A stretch of DNA of 24,000 nucleotides, from assembly GCA_045606105.1 (NCBI GenBank), contig JAZURI010000003.1:129647-153646 (forward strand), in the 5' to 3' direction. The stretch's first letter is position 1, and the number at the start of each line of letters is the position of its first letter. Both the position numbers and the translations under genes were made by a program. Source of the DNA: Spirochaetia bacterium. Its GTDB lineage: Bacteria > Spirochaetota > Spirochaetia > CADAEX01. Below, in pieces: positions 23-22,688 of this stretch. The notes under the pieces were generated by a model. The model was not told where the DNA came from. It ran no database searches and saw nothing but the letters and a program-made list of their open reading frames with translations.

Positions 23-574
23 ATGGAGTCTGCATATGTTCCGGGAAACATCATATCATTCCACGGCTTTGCCTCCACCGGCAAGAACAGGATCGGCAGG
101 GCTGTTGCCGGAAAGCTGGGTATCCCTTTCATAAGGCTGGATGATGAGATAGAGAAGGAAACCGGCCGGGAAATAATTGATATCATCGAGGAGGAGGGGA
201 CAGAGGTTTTTGTCTCCTGTGAAAGAAAAATCCTTGAAAGAATCATTGAAAGGGGAGAACGTGTTGTTCTGTCCTGCGGAAGCGATACCCTTTTCTCTTC
301 GGAAAACAGGGAACTGCTGAAGCGTTATTCCTGTCCTGTATGGCTGGTGGCAAATTCGGAGCTTATACTCAAGAAAAGATTTTTTCTCTCATACAAGCCT
401 GTGGAGGGGGAAAGCATGATAGATGCGGTAAACAGGCTTTATGAAACCAGACGGATAAATTATGCCGGTTTGTCGGAGCTCATTGTCAGGAGCGATATTG
501 CGGATACCGAAAAAACGGCAGAAAAAATTGTAAACGAGCTGTCGGCAATGACCGAAAAATATTCATCACGATAA
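23..574 (+). CDS. aroK: shikimate kinase-like P-loop kinase
   Basis: 183-aa ORF. N-terminal Walker-A-like 'GFASTGKNRIG' followed by 'IPFIRLDDEIE..TGREI.DI', which matches the size and layout of shikimate kinases. Walker A reads GK-N rather than GK-S/T. The ORF begins close to the window edge. Confidence 0.55.
   Translation: MESAYVPGNIISFHGFASTGKNRIGRAVAGKLGIPFIRLDDEIEKETGREIIDIIEEEGTEVFVSCERKILERIIERGERVVLSCGSDTLFSSENRELLKRYSCPVWLVANSELILKKRFFLSYKPVEGESMIDAVNRLYETRRINYAGLSELIVRSDIADTEKTAEKIVNELSAMTEKYSSR
196..206 (+). repeat. GGGGACAGAGG motif copy (in aroK-like CDS, read as G-T-E)
   Basis: Exact 11-mer. Codons are gaG GGG ACA GAG Gtt. Confidence 0.95.
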
Positions 575-1034: not shown

Positions 1035-1658
1035 TCATTGAAAATGGATGAATATAAGAACTGAAATAAAGTTGAAAAGGAAGTGAGCTACCGTATTTAC
1101 TATAATACTGCCGTATTTCCTGAAAAAATATCCTAAAAGCAGTCCCATGATGAAAATCAGGATAACATTGAAGATACCCTGGTATATGTGTCCGGAGGCA
1201 AAGACCAGGGCGCTTGCTGTCATGGCGGGGACAGAGGATATAATCTTTTCAAAGGACCTGAACATATATGCCCTGAAGAAAAGCTCCTCTGCCAGGCCGG
1301 CAACTATGAACATGGGAATCAGCAGGAGTTCCGTATCTCCGGAAACTTTCATAAAGTCTCCTCCTGTATCGGGAAGAATAAACCGGCCGGCAATACCGGT
1401 CAGGTACAATGTTCCCAAGATTAAGGCAGTTCTTTGAATATCCCTGACCTCAAGAGCTCTGAAACCCATTTCCTTGAGAGTATATTTCTTTATTTTAAAA
1501 ATAAATATGAAAAGAAGAAGCAGCTGTATCGATGCCACTGCAGTTGCTTTTACTGCGTATGAGGCATTGATTTCAAGAACCGAACCCGATTTCATGAACG
1601 GGTTATAAAGAATGAGAAAAATAATGAGGGGTTCTGCTGCCGGTAATATTTTTTTCAT
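1035..1658 (-). CDS. CPBP family intramembrane glutamic endopeptidase (CAAX protease/Abi family)
   Basis: 207-aa polytopic ORF with the three CPBP motifs: 'EELFFR' (EExxxR), 'FASGH' (FxxxH) and 'HFLFN' (HxxxN). The start ATG overlaps the stop of the upstream gene by 1 nt. Confidence 0.85.
   Translation of the reverse strand: MKKILPAAEPLIIFLILYNPFMKSGSVLEINASYAVKATAVASIQLLLLFIFIFKIKKYTLKEMGFRALEVRDIQRTALILGTLYLTGIAGRFILPDTGGDFMKVSGDTELLLIPMFIVAGLAEELFFRAYMFRSFEKIISSVPAMTASALVFASGHIYQGIFNVILIFIMGLLLGYFFRKYGSIIVNTVAHFLFNFISVLIFIHFQ
1227..1237 (+). repeat. GGGGACAGAGG motif copy (antisense to minus-strand CPBP gene, which reads S-S-V-P)
   Basis: Exact 11-mer on the + strand. The gene strand reads TCC TCT GTC CCC. 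Confidence 0.95.
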
Positions 1659-4548: not shown

Positions 4549-5844
4549 ATGATTGTATGCAAGTTTGGCGGAAGCTCTGTAGCAGATGCCGTACAGATTT
4601 CCAAGACACAGAATATCGTGAAGGGCAATCCTGACAGAAAGATTGTTGTTGTATCGGCTCCCGGCAAAAGGGATAAGGAAGATGACAAGATTACGGATCT
4701 GCTTTATAAATGTCACAATCTTGCAAGCAATGACAAGCCTATAGATTCCGCATGGGAAAAGATCAGGAACCGCTATCTCCAGATTGCGGCAGTTCTCGAT
4801 ATCACATGGGATCTGAAGGAGGAGCTTGATTATATTGAAAACAAGCTTGCCGGAAAATGCAGCTCAGACTATGCAGCAAGCCGCGGGGAATATCTTAATG
4901 CCAAGCTTATCTCACTTTATTTCGGATTTGAGTTCCTGGACAGTGCAGAGGTGATAAGACTGGGGGACAGAGGTGAGATTCTTCCTGAGACCTACGACCT
5001 TATAAGGGAGGCTGTGGATCCTGACAAATATTATGTGGTACCTGGCTTCTACGGACTGGGACCTGACGGAGAGATAAAGACCTTCTCCAGAGGCGGCTCC
5101 GACATTACCGGAAGTATCTATTCAAAGGCCCTTGAAGCGGATATATATGAAAACTGGACCGATGTTTCGGGTATCTATACCACAGACCCTAGAGTTGCAG
5201 AGGCCGCAAGACCTATCGACGACATTACATACAGGGAAATGAGGGAGATGGCATATCTCGGAGCAAACGTGTTCCATGAAGAGGCCATTGCACCGGCCCG
5301 CCAGGCAGACATTTCCATCAATATCAAGAATACAAACGCACCCGGGGACAGAGGAACCTTCATCAATTCCGTCAGGGATGCATCAAAGCAGGCGGTAGCA
5401 GGAATTGCCGGCAAGAGACATTTCCGCCGTATTACTGTTGAAAAATATAAGCTTGAGGACATGCACGAGCTTCATTTTGAGCTCAAGAAGGCACTTGGTG
5501 CTCTCGGTCTTATCATTGCATTCGAGCTTAAGGGAATTGATACCCTCAATTTCTATGTTCAGGATGAAAAGATGATTGACTGGGATTCCTTCGGTGAAAA
5601 GCTCAAGGCTGATCTCGATGTGGAGAAGGTGGTATATTCCGAGGACCTGGCTGTAATCGGAATAATCGGCGAAGGACTTGCCGTTTCATTCTCACATGTG
5701 CTTGAGATTCTCAATGCTGTCGGAAAAGAGGGCATCAACATAGAAAACATCAACTGCGGTGGTTCACCTATTTCTGCCGTTCTTGTTATCCGTGACGAGG
5801 ACTATGTAAAGGCAATGAATGTCATTGCTTCCGTTATTGCCTGA
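4549..5844 (+). CDS. lysC: aspartate kinase
   Basis: 431 aa. N-terminal 'KFGGSSVA' amino-acid-kinase motif, 'VVVSAPGK', 'FSRGGSD.TG' and a C-terminal ACT-like region. RBS 'caggag' lies upstream of the ATG. Confidence 0.9.
   Translation: MIVCKFGGSSVADAVQISKTQNIVKGNPDRKIVVVSAPGKRDKEDDKITDLLYKCHNLASNDKPIDSAWEKIRNRYLQIAAVLDITWDLKEELDYIENKLAGKCSSDYAASRGEYLNAKLISLYFGFEFLDSAEVIRLGDRGEILPETYDLIREAVDPDKYYVVPGFYGLGPDGEIKTFSRGGSDITGSIYSKALEADIYENWTDVSGIYTTDPRVAEAARPIDDITYREMREMAYLGANVFHEEAIAPARQADISINIKNTNAPGDRGTFINSVRDASKQAVAGIAGKRHFRRITVEKYKLEDMHELHFELKKALGALGLIIAFELKGIDTLNFYVQDEKMIDWDSFGEKLKADLDVEKVVYSEDLAVIGIIGEGLAVSFSHVLEILNAVGKEGINIENINCGGSPISAVLVIRDEDYVKAMNVIASVIA
4963..4973 (+). repeat. GGGGACAGAGG motif copy (in lysC, read as G-D-R-G)
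   Basis: Exact 11-mer. Codons are GGG GAC AGA GGt. Confidence 0.95.
5344..5354 (+). repeat. GGGGACAGAGG motif copy (in lysC, read as G-D-R-G)
   Basis: Exact 11-mer. Codons are GGG GAC AGA GGa. Confidence 0.95.
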
Positions 5845-5851
5845 ACCTGAT

Positions 5852-7096
5852 ATGAAAAAAACAGCTGCAGCCATACTGTTTCTGCTCATGCTTGCGGTTT
5901 TTCCCACATGGGGGGACGGTATCATGCCGCCTGAGCCGGTGCTCAACTGCAGGGCTGCTGTCCTTATGGACTATGATACGGGGACAGTGCTTTTCAGCAA
6001 GAACCCCTCGGCTGAAATTCCCCCGGCCTCAATGACAAAACTCATGACCTCCTTTCTCCTTTTCGAAAAAATAGAGAGGGGAGAGCTTTCACTTGATGAT
6101 ATCTATACCGTTTCCGAAAAGGCCGATTTCAAGAATGCACCACCCAGGTCGTCACTGCTTTTTCTGGAACGGGGACAGAGGTTGACAATAAAGGAGCTGG
6201 TTACAGGGCTTCTTGTGGTTTCCGGCAATGATGCGGCCACGGCAGTGGCAGAGCTGGTTGCAGGGGGACGGGAGGAGTGTGTCGCCCTGATGAACAAACG
6301 GGCCGCGGAGCTTGGGTTTCCTTCCTTTCATTTTGAGGATGTATCCGGGTACGACAGCCGCAACAAGGTCAATCCCCTTGATTTCTGCCGTTTCTGCAGG
6401 CTCTACATAAAAACCTGCTACGATTATTTTGCCGACATAGTGGGAATCGAAACATTGGGATATCCCGAAAGAAAGCATCTGGCAGGGACCAAGCCTACCT
6501 ACGGAAAAATTGTCCAGAACAATTCCAACGAGCTGATAGGGCGGTACGACGGAGTCGATGGCATTAAAACAGGTTATATAGATGAATCCGGCTATAATGT
6601 GGCCCTGACAGCCCGGAGGGACGGAATGAGGCTTGTGGCCGTGATAATGGGAATCGATGCCTCCAAACCTTCGGAGGGAAAGCTTCTCAGGGGAATAGAC
6701 GGATCTGCCCTGATTACCTATGGCTTCAGCACTTTCAGAACCTTCAGACCGGCTATGGGTGAAAAGCTTGAGATTCCGGTTTATCACTGCAGCAGCAAAA
6801 AAGCGGAAATAGTTCCGGTAATAGATACACCTGTCACTGTCCCTTACAGCCGTCTCGGAGAGCTGGTTTTCAATGTGAGCATGAAACAGGATATGAAGGG
6901 GGAAATGGCTGCGGGGACAGAGGTTGGCCGCTATACCCTGACTCTCGGGGACAGAGGTTTGGCAGAAGGTCCCATGGTTCTCAGTGAAGGGACAGAAAAA
7001 TGTTCACCTTTGCAGAATATCCCCGAATTCTTCCGCTTCCTGTTTAAAAAGTCAGTTGCAGAAAGGAAAATATCTGCTATAATATCACAGTTATGA
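5852..7096 (+). CDS. D-alanyl-D-alanine carboxypeptidase (PBP5/6-type serine peptidase)
   Basis: SxxK 'SMTK', SxN 'SGND' and KTG 'KTGY' motifs occur in the correct order. I chose the start at 'MKKTAAAILFLLMLAVFPTWG' (signal peptide) rather than the ORF-track start at 5819. Confidence 0.9.
   Translation: MKKTAAAILFLLMLAVFPTWGDGIMPPEPVLNCRAAVLMDYDTGTVLFSKNPSAEIPPASMTKLMTSFLLFEKIERGELSLDDIYTVSEKADFKNAPPRSSLLFLERGQRLTIKELVTGLLVVSGNDAATAVAELVAGGREECVALMNKRAAELGFPSFHFEDVSGYDSRNKVNPLDFCRFCRLYIKTCYDYFADIVGIETLGYPERKHLAGTKPTYGKIVQNNSNELIGRYDGVDGIKTGYIDESGYNVALTARRDGMRLVAVIMGIDASKPSEGKLLRGIDGSALITYGFSTFRTFRPAMGEKLEIPVYHCSSKKAEIVPVIDTPVTVPYSRLGELVFNVSMKQDMKGEMAAGTEVGRYTLTLGDRGLAEGPMVLSEGTEKCSPLQNIPEFFRFLFKKSVAERKISAIISQL
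6171..6181 (+). repeat. GGGGACAGAGG motif copy (in carboxypeptidase CDS, read as R-G-Q-R)
   Basis: Exact 11-mer. Codons are cGG GGA CAG AGG. Confidence 0.95.
6913..6923 (+). repeat. GGGGACAGAGG motif copy (in carboxypeptidase CDS, read as G-T-E)
   Basis: Exact 11-mer. Codons are gcG GGG ACA GAG Gtt. Confidence 0.95.
6947..6957 (+). repeat. GGGGACAGAGG motif copy (in carboxypeptidase CDS, read as G-D-R-G)
   Basis: Exact 11-mer. Codons are GGG GAC AGA GGt. It shares the 14-mer cGGGGACAGAGGTT with the copy 34 nt upstream. Confidence 0.95.
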
Positions 7097-7347
7097 CACG
7101 GGAAGATTTTATTTTTACGATAGGTTTTGACGGAGACGGTCCTGTAGTTGACAAGCTGAATGCAAAAAAATTCGGAAAACTGGGGACAGAGGATTTATTC
7201 AGGGAAGGTTTTTACAAGTCGGCAGTATGCTCTGCGGTCTTTTCAGGCAGTGAAGCGCAGGAAAAGCTGATTCTTGATCTCTACAATGAAAAATCGGACA
7301 GAAAGGTAGGTTCCTTTGCCGAACTGAAGGCTGTTTTCGGAGTCTGA
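7093..7347 (+). CDS. hypothetical small protein
   Basis: 84-aa ORF whose ATG overlaps the upstream stop (ATGA). It is on the same strand as its neighbours. I recognise no motif. Confidence 0.4.
   Translation: MTREDFIFTIGFDGDGPVVDKLNAKKFGKLGTEDLFREGFYKSAVCSAVFSGSEAQEKLILDLYNEKSDRKVGSFAELKAVFGV
7182..7192 (+). repeat. GGGGACAGAGG motif copy (in 84-aa hypothetical ORF, read as G-T-E)
   Basis: Exact 11-mer. Codons are ctG GGG ACA GAG Gat. Confidence 0.95.
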
Positions 7348-10601: not shown

Positions 10602-10675
10602 GGGCCTATAGCTCAGTTGGTTAGAGCCCTCGACTCATAATCGAGTGGTCCCTGGTTCAAGTCCATGTGGGCCCA
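10602..10675 (+). tRNA. tRNA with CAU anticodon, either elongator Met or more likely Ile2 (lysidine-modified)
   Basis: 74-nt cloverleaf. The acceptor stem pairs GGGCCTA with TGGGCCC. The D-arm is 'AGCTCAGTTGGTTAGAGC'. The anticodon loop is CT-CAT-AA with CAT at 10636-10638. The T-arm is 'GGTTCAAGTCC'. No CCA is encoded. C4-G69 and C5-G68 match known TilS determinants of tRNA-Ile2, so I lean towards Ile2. It has no initiator features. Confidence 0.9.
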
Positions 10676-10708: not shown

Positions 10709-10730
10709 GCTCTTTTGCGGTGAGTTGCGT

Positions 10731-10741
10731 GGGGACAGAGG
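10731..10741 (+). repeat. GGGGACAGAGG motif copy (intergenic, upstream of RAYT)
   Basis: Exact 11-mer in the context TTGCGTGGGGACAGAGGATATTGC. Confidence 0.95.
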
Positions 10742-10762: not shown

Positions 10763-10773
10763 GGGGACAGAGA
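10763..10773 (+). repeat. motif variant GGGGACAGAGA (intergenic, upstream of RAYT)
   Basis: Context is TTGCTTGGGGGACAGAGATATTTG. It equals the upstream copy with one G deleted. A 9-nt direct repeat ATTGCTTGG (10744-10752 and 10755-10763) links the two copies. Confidence 0.85.
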
Positions 10774-10826
10774 TATTTGAAGCAGAACTTCATTAATTTT
10801 GTTTAACATTGTTAAAGGAGAAAACA

Positions 10827-11300
10827 ATGGGAAGAAGAAACAGAATCACCGTTGATGGCGGAACCTACCATATTATTAACAAAATTAATGAAGAAAAGAT
10901 GCTTCTTGAATCGTCATTGATCAAGACTTTGTTCATGAAAATAATCAAAGAGGCAAAATTTCGTAAAAAATTTAGGTTTAGTCTCAAAAATATTACAATT
11001 ATGGACAATCATATTCATATGATTATAAAAATGGAACAAGGAGAAAGCTTATCCAGGTTGATGCAGTGGATTTTTTCTGTCTTTGCCCTTCGTTATAATC
11101 GAAGATTTAACAGAAAAGGTCATCTTTGGATTGATAGATTCAAAAGTAAGCTTATAGAAACTTTATCTGCATATAGGGCAATATTTGAATATATCTGTAA
11201 TAATCCGGTTAAGGCAGGTATTGTAAAAAGTGCTGAGGATTATATTTTTGGGTTCTGGCAATTGAGAGGCAACAGCGAATTTCAGGCACTTTTTACTTGA
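10827..11300 (+). CDS. rayT: REP-associated tyrosine transposase (RAYT; IS200/IS605-like Y1 HUH transposase family)
   Basis: 157 aa counted from the ATG at 10827, with RBS aaggag at 10815-10820. It has 'YHI' near the N-terminus, the HUH motif in 'DNHIHMII', 'YNRRFNRKGHLWIDRF' and the Tyr-bearing 'FEYICNNPVKAGIV'. The gene is much more AT-rich than its neighbours. Confidence 0.8.
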   Translation: MGRRNRITVDGGTYHIINKINEEKMLLESSLIKTLFMKIIKEAKFRKKFRFSLKNITIMDNHIHMIIKMEQGESLSRLMQWIFSVFALRYNRRFNRKGHLWIDRFKSKLIETLSAYRAIFEYICNNPVKAGIVKSAEDYIFGFWQLRGNSEFQALFT

Positions 11301-11331: not shown

Positions 11332-12123
11332 ATGAACCGATTGGAGCTTCTTGATAAGGTTTATAATGAATATCATCGGGAGGAGTACATATATCCTGAT
11401 CCTCTGTCCCCGGTATTATCCTATAAAAACGCCGATGACAGGGAAGTTGCAGCTATTATTGCATCTTCTCTTGCTTTAGGACGGGTTGATCTTATCCTTA
11501 AAGCGGTAAATTCTGTGCTTTTACCACTCGGCTCTCATCCGGCTTCTGAACTTGATTCTCTCTCGGTGTCGGATTTGAGAGAAATTTATCATGATTTCGT
11601 TTATAGATTTTTTAAAACCGATGAAATAACCGGTTTTTTATATGCAATTAAGGTGATACGCGGGGACAGAGGAAGCCTCCAAGCCCTTTTTACCACAAAT
11701 TACACCCAAGGAAAGGGCATTACAAGCGGTATTACAGCTCTCAGCAATGAAATTGCCAGGATTTCAGAGGGTAAATCGGCTATGTTGCTCCCATCTCCTG
11801 AAAAAGGCAGTGCCTGTAAAAGGGTTAATCTTTTTCTTAGATGGATGGTCCGGCATGATAACATTGATCCGGGAGGATGGTCTGATATAAATACCTGTGA
11901 TTTGTTGGTTCCGGTTGATACCCATATGTATGATATTGCAAAACGTCTCAGGTTTACATCCAGAAAGACTGCAGATTTCAAAACAGCAGTTGAAATTACT
12001 GCCGGTTTTGCAGAAATTGTTCCTGAAGACCCTGTAAAATATGATTTTTCACTTACAAGATTGGGAATACATCCTGATCTTGATAAGGAAATATTTAAAA
12101 ATCTTGATTTTAAAGGAGAATAG
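11332..12123 (+). CDS. DUF2400/TIGR02757-family protein (uncharacterised; HhH-glycosylase-like fold by recollection)
   Basis: 263 aa. 'DP...Y....DRE.AA.IAS.LA.GRV', '[12 protein letters not shown]' and 'L..P.DTH' match my memory of the TIGR02757 family. I cannot confirm this without an HMM search. Confidence 0.6.
11401..11411 (-). repeat. GGGGACAGAGG motif copy, inverted (in DUF2400 CDS, read as P-L-S-P)
   Basis: Exact reverse complement CCTCTGTCCCC. It lies 101 nt past the RAYT stop. Codons are CCT CTG TCC CCg. Confidence 0.95.
11662..11672 (+). repeat. GGGGACAGAGG motif copy (in DUF2400 CDS, read as G-D-R-G)
   Basis: Exact 11-mer. Codons are GGG GAC AGA GGa. Confidence 0.95.
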
Positions 12124-12292: not shown

Positions 12293-12327
12293 GGGGACAG
12301 AGGTTTATCTGATAAACCTCTGTCCCC
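12293..12327. repeat. perfect 35-bp palindrome built from two inverted motif copies (possible terminator or REPIN/DUS-pair-like element)
   Basis: GGGGACAGAGGTTTATC-T-GATAAACCTCTGTCCCC, giving 17-nt arms around one central base. It starts 13 nt after the rubredoxin stop. No T-run follows. Confidence 0.9.
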
Positions 12328-20695: not shown

Positions 20696-21255
20696 TCATG
20701 GATAAAAGAATTCTTGTTCTTCTTGCAGAGGGCTGCGAGGAAATGGAGGTTGTGATTCCTTCCGATCTGGCTGTAAGGGCAGGTCTTGATGTTGTAATGG
20801 CAGGAATAGAAGGAATCGATATAACAGGTTCCCACGGGATTTCCCTTATTGCAGATTGCGAGATCGTTGATATTGCAGATGAAATCTTTGATGCCGTAAT
20901 CATTCCGGGAGGAATGCCGGGTGCCGAGAACATTGCAAACAATGAGGTTGCCATGGAGGTAATCCAGAGGCATGCAGACAAGGAGAAGCTTATCTGTGCC
21001 ATCTGTGCCGCGCCCGGTGTAGTTCTGGGAGATACCAGAATTCTTGATGACCGTATGGTTACCTGCTATCCAGGCTTTGAAAAGCATTTCAACCGTACTG
21101 TAACCTATATCGAGGATAAGGTTGCTGTCAGCGGAAATGTCATTACTGCAAAGGGCCCGGGAGCAGCTTTCCTGTTCGGCCGTGAAATTCTCAAGGCTCT
21201 TCTGGGAGAGGTTGTGGCAGACAAGGTTCTGCAGGGAACTTTCTATTCATGCTGA
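20692..21255 (+). CDS. DJ-1/PfpI family protein
   Basis: 187 aa with 'ILV.LA.G.EE.E' at the N-terminus and the nucleophile elbow 'AICAAP'. It overlaps the upstream stop (ATGA). Confidence 0.85.
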   Translation: MIMDKRILVLLAEGCEEMEVVIPSDLAVRAGLDVVMAGIEGIDITGSHGISLIADCEIVDIADEIFDAVIIPGGMPGAENIANNEVAMEVIQRHADKEKLICAICAAPGVVLGDTRILDDRMVTCYPGFEKHFNRTVTYIEDKVAVSGNVITAKGPGAAFLFGREILKALLGEVVADKVLQGTFYSC

Positions 21256-22688
21256 GTATAAACGGCAAAAGCTTTTATCTTGTTGGGATAAAGGGTACAG
21301 GGCTTTCTGCCTTTGCCGAGCTTCTGCTTAAATCGGGAGCCAAGGTTACGGGAAGCGACACAGCGGAGAAATTCTATACCGACGAGGTGCTCCGTTCCCA
21401 GGGGATAAGCTTCAGGGAGGGTTTTTCTTCCGAAAATATCCCTGCCGGTATCGATTATGTAATTTATTCCTCTGCCTATAATCCGGCTGAGAATCCTGAC
21501 CTTGCGGAAGCGGTCAGGAGAGGTATTCCCATTATGGAGTACACAAAGGCACTGGGGGCTTTTTCTGAGGCTTACGATGCCGGGGGAATTGCCGGTGTCC
21601 ATGGCAAGACTACAACAACTGCAATTACTGGAACACTGCTGAAGGCCCTTGATGCACCGGCTGCAGTTCTGGCCGGTTCTGCGGTATCCAACTTCGACGG
21701 CCGTTCCACCTTTGTGAACGGAAACCGTTTTTTTGTGGCTGAAACCTGCGAATACAAGCGCCATTTCATGTCATTCCGGCCGTCCAGGATAATAGTTACA
21801 AGCATCGAGCCGGATCACCTGGATTTCTTTCCCACATATGCCGATATTTTCAGCGCATTTGTGGATTATGCCTTGCTGCTGCCGGAAAACGGGGAGCTGA
21901 TTTACTGTGCCGATGACAGCGGATGCCGTGAGCTGGCTGCCGTTATCAGGGAAAAAAGAGCCGATATAGTACAGATTCCTTACGGATTCACTGCAGAAGG
22001 GGATTACAGGATTACATCTTCCGGAATCAGGGAAAGCCGTAACTGCTTTACATTGGCAGGCTTTGATACGGAATTTGCCCTGAGGATACCGGGAGAGCAT
22101 ATTGTTCTTGATTCTGCCGCCGCATTGGCCATGACAGTTTCCATCCTTAAGAAATGGAAAGGGGAGCCGGGGACAGAGGAACTGGAAAAAATAAGGAACG
22201 GCTTTGAGGAGTTCAGAGGAAGCAAGAGACGCAGCGAAATTCTCGGTACTGCCGGAGGAATCCTGTTCATGGACGATTATGCCCATCATCCCACAGCCAT
22301 AAGACTGACACTTGAGGGAATCAGGAGCTTTTATCCGGGAAGGAAGCTGGTGGTGGATTTCATGTCCCATACCTATTCCAGGACCGAAGGACTTCTTGAG
22401 GAATTTGCCTCTTCTTTCGGGGCTGCGGATGAGGTTATCCTGAACAATATATATGCTTCGGCCCGTGAAAGGAATACGGATTCCGATCTGGACAGCCGTT
22501 TTTACCGGGCCCTGTGCCGGAATCACAATAATGTAAAGTATTTTCCGAAGCCTGCCGACGGCTTTGATTATCTTAAAACACATTTACAAAGGGACCACAT
22601 ATTCATTACTATGGGTGCTGGAGATAACTGGACTGTGGGAAAAATGCTGTATGACTATTTTTCCTGCAAAAAAGAGGCTTTAACATGA
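21249..22688 (+). CDS. murC: UDP-N-acetylmuramate--L-alanine ligase
   Basis: 479 aa with 'GIKGTGLSAFAELLLKSGAKVTGSD' Rossmann-like N-terminus, P-loop 'GVHGKTTTTA', 'D.YAHHPT' and 'GAGD'. An Mpl-type paralogue cannot be fully excluded. Confidence 0.82.
   Translation: MLSINGKSFYLVGIKGTGLSAFAELLLKSGAKVTGSDTAEKFYTDEVLRSQGISFREGFSSENIPAGIDYVIYSSAYNPAENPDLAEAVRRGIPIMEYTKALGAFSEAYDAGGIAGVHGKTTTTAITGTLLKALDAPAAVLAGSAVSNFDGRSTFVNGNRFFVAETCEYKRHFMSFRPSRIIVTSIEPDHLDFFPTYADIFSAFVDYALLLPENGELIYCADDSGCRELAAVIREKRADIVQIPYGFTAEGDYRITSSGIRESRNCFTLAGFDTEFALRIPGEHIVLDSAAALAMTVSILKKWKGEPGTEELEKIRNGFEEFRGSKRRSEILGTAGGILFMDDYAHHPTAIRLTLEGIRSFYPGRKLVVDFMSHTYSRTEGLLEEFASSFGAADEVILNNIYASARERNTDSDLDSRFYRALCRNHNNVKYFPKPADGFDYLKTHLQRDHIFITMGAGDNWTVGKMLYDYFSCKKEALT
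22169..22179 (+). repeat. GGGGACAGAGG motif copy (in murC, read as G-T-E)
   Basis: Exact 11-mer. Codons are ccG GGG ACA GAG Gaa. Confidence 0.95.

Follow-up and report, generated by a model that had tools for sequence, protein, structure and literature searches.

Copies of the word in the carboxypeptidase gene and the window

The stretch of spirochaete DNA that was analyzed, 24,000 nucleotides in all and called the window below, contains a carboxypeptidase gene in which one short word recurs. Gene calls in this analysis were made by an ORF heuristic, and the longest ORF was taken for this gene; the public gene calls place its start at 5852, giving a product of 414 aa. The features of the gene are as follows.

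5819–7096, plus strand: CDS of a PBP5/6-type D-Ala-D-Ala carboxypeptidase (longest ORF; Pfam Peptidase_S11, E=1e-52)
5980–5990, plus strand: near-cognate site with 2 mismatches, T-G-T-V, similarity at background level
6171–6181, plus strand: exact word copy at codon position 2, R-G-Q-R, no gap relative to 23 orthologues
6913–6923, plus strand: exact word copy at codon position 3, (A)G-T-E(V), gap-free, in variable columns (93rd–95th percentile)
6947–6959, plus strand: word copy (13-mer with TT) at codon position 1, G-D-R-G, a recent gain
6988–6998, plus strand: look-alike with 3 mismatches, indistinguishable from chance and variable among strains

The 11-base word GGGGACAGAGG is present exactly at 6171, 6913, and 6947, one copy per reading frame, as an earlier note on this DNA had claimed; with 5819 as the start of the CDS, the exact GGGGACAGAGGTT begins at codon position 2, 3, and 1, respectively. 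The same note was correct that the copies at 6913 and 6947 are spaced by 34 nt and have a 14-mer, CGGGGACAGAGGTT, in common, and that the ORF is intact: it is unbroken, and its SMTK, SGN, and KTG motifs are present in 23 strain and species variants. Two further sites, which the note had counted as truncated copies, did not hold up. They differ from the word at 2 (5980) and 3 (6988/6989) positions, and this is background-level similarity; two-mismatch sites are found at about 29 per 100 kb everywhere and three-mismatch sites at about 2.5 per kb genome-wide. The T-G-T-V peptide at 5980 is present in many orthologues without the word, and at that site the variant GGGGACAGAGC is found in the sister species.

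The proposal that copies sit at tolerant sites was right for 6913 and 6947, where the alignment columns are at the 84th–95th percentile of variability, but not for 6171, where the word is placed on an invariant Gly-Gln whose codons already fit the word core, as judged from the orthologue columns. The 6171 word is unaltered in both G005 and the sister species, where its flanks differ, and the 6913 word is common to the sister species. Other word copies in the window, apart from those near the transposase gene described below, are these.

196–206, plus strand: lineage-specific copy, E-G-T-E-V; G005 has D-G-F-E-A at this gap-free position
1227–1237, plus strand: copy antisense to a minus-strand Rce1/CPBP-like gene, S-S-V-P
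4963–4973, plus strand: copy in lysC, G-D-R-G, no gap relative to 9 orthologues (G-E-H/R-G); also in the sister species
5344–5354, plus strand: copy in lysC, G-D-R-G, gap-free; also in the sister species
7182–7192, plus strand: copy in an 84-aa ORF, L-G-T-E-D, no gap relative to 8 orthologues; also in the sister species
22169–22179, plus strand: copy in the 21249–22688 ORF, P-G-T-E-E

At the 5344 site, the orthologues have E/D-E/D-S/A/P-G with invariant residues on either side. A recount agreed with the earlier tally of readings: GTE four times (196, 6913, 7182, and 22169), GDRG four times (4963, 5344, 6947, and 11662), RGQR once, and the antisense readings SSVP (1227) and PLSP (11401); a further three copies are intergenic. 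Chance is excluded as the source of these copies, because the window contains 14 copies of the 10-base core where 0.01 is expected, and 25 sense copies were seen genome-wide where about 0.46 is expected from codon frequencies.

The transposase gene and the distribution of the word

The features around the transposase gene, on which the genomic distribution of the word is centered, are listed next.

10731–10741, plus strand: left flanking word, the upstream inverted repeat
10763–10773: one-mismatch word copy left of the transposase gene
10809–11300, plus strand: RAYT/TIRYT-type Y1 (HUH) transposase gene, 4 kb from the carboxypeptidase gene
11401–11411, minus strand: right flanking word, inverted, within the DUF2400 CDS, P-L-S-P
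11662–11672, plus strand: copy in DUF2400, G-D-R-G, unchanged across 15 strain variants; present in the sister species as well
12293–12327, strandless: perfect 17-1-17 palindrome of two inverted words directly 3′ of the rubredoxin gene, a terminator-like or REPIN-like doublet

The ORF at 10809–11300 matched Pfam PF01797 (Y1_Tnp; E=4e-15) and scored 85.7 bits with NCBIfam NF047646 (REP_Tyr_transpos; cut-off 80), as against 32.6 with the IS200 model (cut-off 55). The sole PDB match of the protein was 4ER8 (TnpA-REP), with which it aligns at its H-I-H and at the Tyr of F-E-Y-I, and 18 homologues retain the HUH and the catalytic Tyr. By its predicted fold, its family model, its HUH motif and Tyr, and its fixed locus, the product would be a member of the RAYT family. 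The gene is present as a single copy in G000 and is found at the syntenic locus of the sister species, where the nucleotide identity is 81%; because it is thus vertically inherited and fixed in place, it is domesticated. G001 is an exception, with five transposase copies, and there the gene and its repeats have been duplicated as a 665-bp unit.

The word flanks the gene as inverted repeats at 10731 (plus) and 11401 (minus), both beginning GGGGACAG, and in the sister species the transposase flanks are identical inverted 15-mers. The exact and one-mismatch left-flank copies (10731 and 10763) are exchanged in the sister species, and its 11401 word has three mismatches and no gap. All members of the DUF2400 cluster are at least 98% identical, with both word sites invariant. 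The word itself is a non-palindromic 11-mer that forms no hairpin, and no conserved sequence was found beyond 11–13 nt. Taken together, the sequence comparisons indicate that the word is the cognate end, and putative recognition word, of the neighboring RAYT/TIRYT-family Y1 transposase.

The 1.46-Mb genome contains 34 core copies, 32 of them full 11-mers, and their distribution is strongly local. Thirty-one lie on one contig in a stretch of about 110 kb, leaving three in the other 1.23 Mb. Thirty copies are no more than 60 kb from the transposase gene and 20 are within 20 kb (P=5e-23), giving a word density of 24 per 100 kb inside this cloud and 0.22 outside it, a 108-fold difference. Two-mismatch sites showed zero enrichment near the gene, and exact copies there outnumbered one-mismatch copies by 29 to 4. 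The cloud is patchy and its decay with distance uneven, with five copies between −53 and −56 kb and few at 20–40 kb.

The presence of the word followed that of the gene. Within the genus, the transposase gene was found in G000, G001, and G005 only, and word enrichment in those only; six of the eight other genomes of the same genus had 0–2 word copies. G021, from another family, has both the transposase gene and a richness in the word. The form of the word also followed the gene: in G001, paralogues with flanks ending in AGC are surrounded by clouds of words ending in AGC, and those with flanks ending in AGG by clouds ending in AGG. Homologues in the spirochaete genomes G011, G012, G014, and G015 have GGGGACGGAGG flanks and local clouds of that same word. 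The picture of a genome-wide, USS-like signal unconnected to any mobile element was therefore not borne out, since the word flanks a Y1-transposase gene and is enriched only in genomes carrying that gene.

The note had likened the word to the uptake signal of Haemophilus. Copies of such a USS/DUS-like signal would accumulate genome-wide through biased uptake and recombination. Copies in all frames at tolerant sites, together with inverted terminator pairs, are typical of USS and DUS, and the present word resembles them in being intragenic, in using every frame where the protein is tolerant, and in having one inverted pair that could form a terminator-like hairpin. The likeness stands for the occurrence in all frames by substitution; it fails for the distribution, with so few copies in the genome, almost all in one stretch and almost none in most congeners, and with a presence that follows the transposase gene and a variant that follows the paralogue. 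We consider an uptake signal very improbable. Import by recombination from a word-rich donor was also considered and was rejected, because the cloud is centered on the transposase gene and orthologous sites are common to the sister species.

At C3:141950 the prevailing strand of the copies changes from plus on the left to minus on the right, as would be expected of a polar, chromosome-organizing motif of the KOPS, Ter, or parS type that points toward a chromosomal landmark. However, orientation corresponds to the coding strand of the host gene. Twenty-eight of the 32 copies are intragenic, and 25 of those 28 (89%) are in the sense direction, compared with 75% of near-cognate background sites, an excess that is not significant. 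There is no switch in GC skew at C3:141950, and in most congeners the word was not found. Neither the genome-wide density of USS/DUS nor the polarity of KOPS/Ter is found for the word, and a chromosome-organizing role seems to us highly unlikely.

Origin and maintenance of the copies

The sense bias might suggest a signal at the level of protein or RNA, either a selected peptide (GTE or GDRG) or a site in mRNAs for pairing with a small-RNA seed. Arguing against such a signal, that bias does not significantly exceed the background, three different peptides are encoded, as well as two antisense ones, and some copies are intergenic; moreover, a trans-acting RNA or peptide would not yield a cloud centered on one gene. 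Orthologues without the word do not conserve the full peptides, in agreement with the earlier statement that no single peptide explains the word. In six words common to the sister species, 21 of 21 third-codon positions were identical, whereas the value for the genes as a whole was 64% (P=7e-5). Eleven words were perfectly kept between the species, and their 44-nt flanks were 29% diverged. Whether codon choice at the word departs from the norm had also been asked, and the word indeed uses rare codons (GGG 11%, CGG 11%, and TTG 4%). Because the copies occupy three frames, both strands, and intergenic positions, use rare codons, and have synonymous positions that are frozen between species, the data support selection or drive acting on the DNA word and not on the peptide. 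The probability that a peptide or RNA signal is responsible is, in our estimation, very small.

If each copy were a miniature insertion element (a REP- or MITE-like unit) or a transposon footprint, added residues would be expected. In favor of this explanation, the gene to which the word belongs derives from a transposase, that gene and its repeats have been duplicated together in G001, and REPs inserted in frame within genes are known (PMC3733652). Against it, residues flanking the word align one-to-one with those of word-less orthologues, and conserved sequence ends at 11–13 nt. No multi-codon insertion was found at the word at any of the intragenic sites examined (the PBP5 gene, lysC, the 84-aa ORF, and the lineage-specific sites of G000 and G005), where the only gap was of one codon, adjoining C3:155687. 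The extra residues that mark intragenic REPs or MITEs thus appear to be missing at these sites, and we regard an insertion element as extremely unlikely. At several lineage-specific sites, 5–9 of 11 positions are unlike the sister sequence, and the divergence of the word at such sites (43%) is close to that of the local flanks (41%). With flanks and word diverged alike, a block event is unnecessary, and these sites are no evidence for copy-paste. These alignments support the production of copies by in-place base substitution, as the note had proposed, instead of by insertion of a unit.

The copy at 6947 was examined in a series of strains that is small (7 contigs). Strains of about 95% identity have GGCGACAGAAAGC (G-D-R-K-L) at this position, and the sister species has G-D-E/D-K. 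Five of 13 nt differ between the 95%-identical strains, and every change, including those in the TT extension, is toward the word; two of the five are synonymous, to rarer codons. This comparison shows the 6947 copy to be a recent gain. One strain of 99% identity has four of the five changes and also ancestral alleles nearby, an intermediate haplotype, although its intermediate state at 6957 could instead reflect a back-mutation. A second 13-nt cluster of strain differences (6658–6676) has no relation to the word. When the SecD protein of the 95%-identity strains was looked up to extend their contigs, only the same contig came back, and a metagenome scan for nearer relatives of the PBP5 region returned a single locus that was 36% identical.

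These changes raise the possibility of templated writing, in which the enzyme, or repair after its nick, copies the whole 11–13-mer over a stretch of equal length in one event. So many changes within 13 nt between strains 5% apart, the excess of exact over one-mismatch copies near the gene, and the lineage-specific sites with 5–9 changed positions would fit such an event. The 99% strain suggests at least two steps, however, and the flanks at lineage-specific sites are diverged like the word. To our knowledge, no templated writing activity has been described for HUH enzymes, and this counts against an explanation that we think quite unlikely.

We consider it likely that the word is cognate to the domesticated transposase and that its local cloud was made by in-place substitution and is held exact by an enzyme-dependent force. 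Words arise through base changes at positions that are near-cognate or that the protein tolerates, in any frame and on either strand that the coding sequence allows, and this accounts for a single gene with copies in each of its three frames. Consistent with this, the frame and strand usage of the copies mirrors that of the near-cognate background. Substitutions probably accumulate stepwise under directional pressure, and a complete copy is then held letter-perfect. The force that fixes and maintains the copies is, we think, a selection or drive that depends on the enzyme and is limited in cis. The enzyme would bind or cut the word on single-stranded DNA, acting mainly in cis so that the force weakens with distance; selection for binding sites and a biased-fixation drive are both candidates for this force. 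We know of no mechanism that would limit the effect of a diffusible enzyme to about 60 kb, and this counts against the proposal.

A stronger version, that the domesticated HUH/Y1 enzyme writes its own 11-base word into nearby DNA with length unchanged, as cis-limited, sequence-directed editing or drive, is one that we put forward tentatively and think rather doubtful. If true, it would provide a non-insertional route for the birth of RAYT-associated repeats and would bear on the dissemination of REP-type repeats, the route of which is unknown (PMC8266576). The repeat in this system is a plain linear word whose birth can be traced base by base within alignable genes. Origin by substitution, restriction to the neighborhood of the enzyme gene, and co-variation of word and paralogue are all measurable from sequence. 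Annotators should note that a k-mer strongly over-represented in every frame is not necessarily a signal for uptake or chromosome polarity, and that such a k-mer can impose rare codons on essential genes.

Comparison with known repeat systems

The closest likenesses are to TIRtrons, with their TIRYT genes (Di Nocera, De Gregorio & Rocco 2013; PMC3733652), which correspond roughly to TnpA-Y1 subclass 2.1 (Quentin et al. 2018; PMC6006769). TIRtrons have a RAYT-like Y1 gene, non-hairpin inverted repeats with the published consensus GGGGWSAS as their core, and repeats that form moderately abundant families in some genomes. The inverted repeats flanking the gene described here carry GGGGWSAS, and the GGGGACGGAGG flanks of the G011 homologues differ from it at one position. 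Unlike TIRtron repeats, the copies here are mostly bare intragenic 11-mers, local, without length change, and exact between species; a search of the TIRtron/TIRYT literature (PMC3733652 and PMC6006769) did not find these in-gene and local features, and a search for the word itself returned unrelated eukaryotic primer sequences only. Members of subclass 2.1 have been described with a C-terminal helix-turn-helix domain, whereas Pfam reported Y1_Tnp alone (residues 16–132) and no such domain in the 163-aa protein; the subclass assignment is therefore left open.

As in REP/BIME–RAYT systems (REPtrons and REPIN–RAYT; E. coli TnpA-REP), the Y1 HUH enzyme here is domesticated, and its gene, single-copy and vertically inherited, has short cognate repeats on either side. 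REPs are GTAG-tagged extragenic palindromes of 20–40 nt present in hundreds of copies genome-wide, whereas the word is linear, mostly intragenic, and local; it is not a GTAG-tagged, hairpin-forming repeat of that type. Substrates of the characterized RAYTs and of IS200/IS605 TnpA form hairpins, unlike this word. Intragenic REPs bring additional residues by insertion, and the copies here are non-insertional. With USS (Haemophilus) and DUS (Neisseria), the word has in common its shortness, its occurrence in all frames at protein-tolerant positions, its origin by substitution, and inverted pairs as terminators; those signals are genome-wide at about one per kb and are tied to the competence machinery, whereas this word clusters locally around a gene of the transposase family. 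The likeness to REPINs and terminators lies in the single inverted doublet 3′ of a gene, the 12293 palindrome. In one strain its loop has been replaced with the arms kept, and in the sister species both arms have the form ending in AGC.

Word copies in the carboxypeptidase gene

The 11-base word GGGGACAGAGGTT had been reported in all three reading frames of the PBP5-type carboxypeptidase gene (5819 to 7096, plus strand), and the sequence confirmed this. The exact copies are as follows, with codon positions counted from the CDS start at 5819; gene calls throughout were made with an in-house ORF heuristic.

6171: exact word, first base at codon position 2, read as R-G-Q-R
6913: exact word, first base at codon position 3, read as (A)G-T-E(V)
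6947: exact word, first base at codon position 1, read as G-D-R-G

The gene product is a Peptidase_S11 carboxypeptidase (Pfam), and its ORF is intact as claimed, with SMTK, SGN, and KTG all present. The tally of translations in the window (GTE four times, GDRG four times, RGQR once, and antisense SSVP and PLSP) also matched exactly. The 10-base core of the word occurs 14 times in the window, with 0.01 copies expected from shuffled sequences. The two "truncated copies" described at 5980 and 6989 depart from the word at 2 and 3 positions, a similarity no higher than background; the T-G-T-V encoded at 5980 is retained by many orthologues that lack the word.

The proposal that copies were made by substitution, not as an inserted unit, held at every gene examined by alignment. 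All five sites in the PBP5 gene were free of gaps against 23 orthologues, as were the lysC sites 4963 and 5344 and site 7182 in orf84 (an 84-aa ORF) against 8–9 orthologues; in lysC and orf84 the words replaced 2–3 variable residues between invariant flanks. Lineage-specific intragenic sites, compared between the source genome (G000) and its relative G005, were all equal-length in-frame replacements, save for a one-codon gap adjoining one site. The flanks beyond the word showed no conservation except a weak W-T. We conclude that word copies arise by substitution. That these sites are tolerant was true of 6913 and 6947, whose columns lie at the 84th–95th percentile of variability, but not of 6171, which sits on an invariant Gly-Gln with codons already matching the core.

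DNA-level constraint and a recent gain

The contig of a sister species (L074) shows 81% identity and complete synteny, and its transposase gene lies at the same place. Six exact words are common to the aligned 15 kb, and inside them 21 of 21 third-codon positions were identical, versus 63.6% gene-wide (P = 7e-5). With the G005 contigs added, 11 words were kept perfectly, and their 44-nt flanks diverged by 29%. The word also imposes rare codons (GGG, 11% of Gly; CGG, 11% of Arg), and its extension at 6947 uses TTG, 4% of Leu codons. The DNA-level part of the suggestion is thus borne out: the copies are constrained as DNA.

Strain contigs, recovered as Logan assemblies, formed a small series with 99.3%, 99.1%, 97.7%, 95.5%, and 94.5% identity; a metagenome scan for related sequences found nothing close. 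At 6947 the ~95% strains have GGCGACAGAAAGC (G-D-R-K-L) and the sister species encodes G-D-E/D-K. G000 has therefore altered 5 of 13 nt, each in the direction of the word. The synonymous changes among them, GGC to GGG and CTG to TTG, were both to rarer codons. In the 5.4 kb compared, only 6947 and 6658–6676 were this dense in differences per 13 nt. The latter contains seven mostly third-position differences between G000 and the 95% strains, unrelated to the word; at several of these positions the 95% strains agree with the sister species, and recombination over a short patch may account for the micro-cluster.

In one 99% strain, L078, four of these five changes at 6947 are present, with the ancestral A at 6957 and ancestral alleles also at 6563 and 6983. 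This state suggests a stepwise path in preference to a single copy-paste event, with back-mutation also possible, and so weighs against templated writing of the word. Elsewhere, lineage-specific sites lie in patches with flanks as diverged as the word itself, giving no support for block copying. We consider templated writing unlikely.

The transposase gene and the local cloud of copies

The ORF at 10809–11300 (plus strand) belongs to Pfam Y1_Tnp and passed the NCBIfam REP-associated tyrosine transposase model (85.7 bits; cut-off 80), falling below the cut-off of the NCBIfam IS200 model. In the PDB its sole relative is TnpA-REP of E. coli (4ER8), with which the HUH motif and catalytic tyrosine align; both are conserved in 18 homologues. 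The gene is bracketed by the word in inverted orientation:

10731 (+): left flanking word, exact
10763 (+): second left copy, one mismatch
11401 (−): right flanking word, inverted

The word agrees with GGGGWSAS, the published repeat core of TIRtrons/TIRYTs (PMC3733652; PMC6006769), and the gene with its inverted repeats is a TIRtron, an already known kind. In-gene length-neutral copies, tight locality, and cross-species freezing were not found in that literature (PMC3733652; PMC6006769).

Directly upstream of the gene is a tRNA-Met gene with a terminator (10602–10675); a tRNA-like sequence and hairpin are recognizable at the same place in the sister species. Strain L072 (99.3% identical) has a 12-nt tandem duplication at 10721, abutting the left flanking word. 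The word–word hairpin at 12293–12327, 3' of the rubredoxin gene, has kept its 14-nt arms in one strain (L073) whose loop was replaced and became longer. In the sister species (L074:16443–16476) both arms have the ...AGC variant, a paired change preserving the stem.

The G000 assembly (1.465 Mb, 11 contigs) contains 34 core copies, 31 of them between 44 and 195 kb of C3, the contig holding the window. Exact copies at 80–200 kb of C3 are 108 times as dense as in the rest of the genome; two-mismatch look-alikes there are not enriched (ratio 0.9). Within this cloud 29 copies are exact versus 4 with one mismatch. Counting outward from the transposase gene, nine copies are reached by 5 kb, 20 by 20 kb (P = 5e-23), and 30 by 60 kb. 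The copies are local, and a USS-like distribution is excluded.

The coding strand of the host gene carries 25 of 28 intragenic copies. Two-mismatch background sites are 75% on the coding strand, with frame proportions similar to those of exact copies; the strand and frame of the copies thus mirror the places in coding sequence that can take the word. A second G000 gene, C3:84098–85405, also has three exact copies, one per frame (G-D-R-G, G-G-Q-R, and P-G-T-E-V); it lies 55 kb from the transposase gene, and two of its three copies are common to G005. A polar chromosome motif, suggested by plus-strand copies lying mostly to the left and minus-strand copies mostly to the right, was rejected; GC skew has no switch there. 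The commonest 12-mers of G000 form one family around AATTTCTACTGTTGTAGAT (24 copies, outside the window), which looks like a Cas12a-type CRISPR repeat; a CRISPR array lying elsewhere in G000 is thus its probable source.

Association of word and gene across genomes

In a comparison with 31 relatives, the exact 11-mer was abundant only in G000 (32), G001 (33), G005 (14; 74% complete), and G021 (48; another family), and exactly these four have close transposase homologues. Six other genomes of the genus (92–99% complete) have 0–2 copies each, and no close homologue was found in them. Of the five paralogues in G001, the C4 and C6 ones have ...AGAGG flanks and ...AGAGG neighboring words, and those on C2 and C50 have ...AGAGC in both. 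In G011, G012, G014, and G015 the homologues are more distant, and inverted GGGGACGGAGG brackets them. This word clusters too: G011, a complete genome, has 20 of its 26 copies no more than 30 kb from one of its five genes, and G015 has 16 of its 31 no more than 150 kb from its single gene; in G017, without the gene, GGGGACGGAGG is at control level. These relatives likewise have most of their copies inside genes, with all three frames and both strands represented, and single genes with the word in all three frames recur (G021:C2 178629–180752; G001:C36 2810–4060). The word belongs to the RAYT/TIRYT gene.

The dissemination of RAYT-associated repeats is described in the literature as being of unknown mechanism (PMC8266576). 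We propose that the enzyme would recognize the word on single-stranded DNA, and that an enzyme-dependent advantage, by site selection or biased-fixation drive, would pull near-cognate sites to the exact word. The same advantage would keep completed words exact, and would act mainly in cis.

In G001, the transposase gene and its flanking words are duplicated as a 665-bp unit (98% identity) at C4:11430–12093 and, inverted, on C6; the unit ends 9 nt past the right word and has moved or been copied in this genome. G021:C22:23799–23884 contains five tandem 18–21-nt repeats, each with the word (CACCGCCGGGGACAGAGG...), which are probably a coding repeat and raise the word count of that genome.
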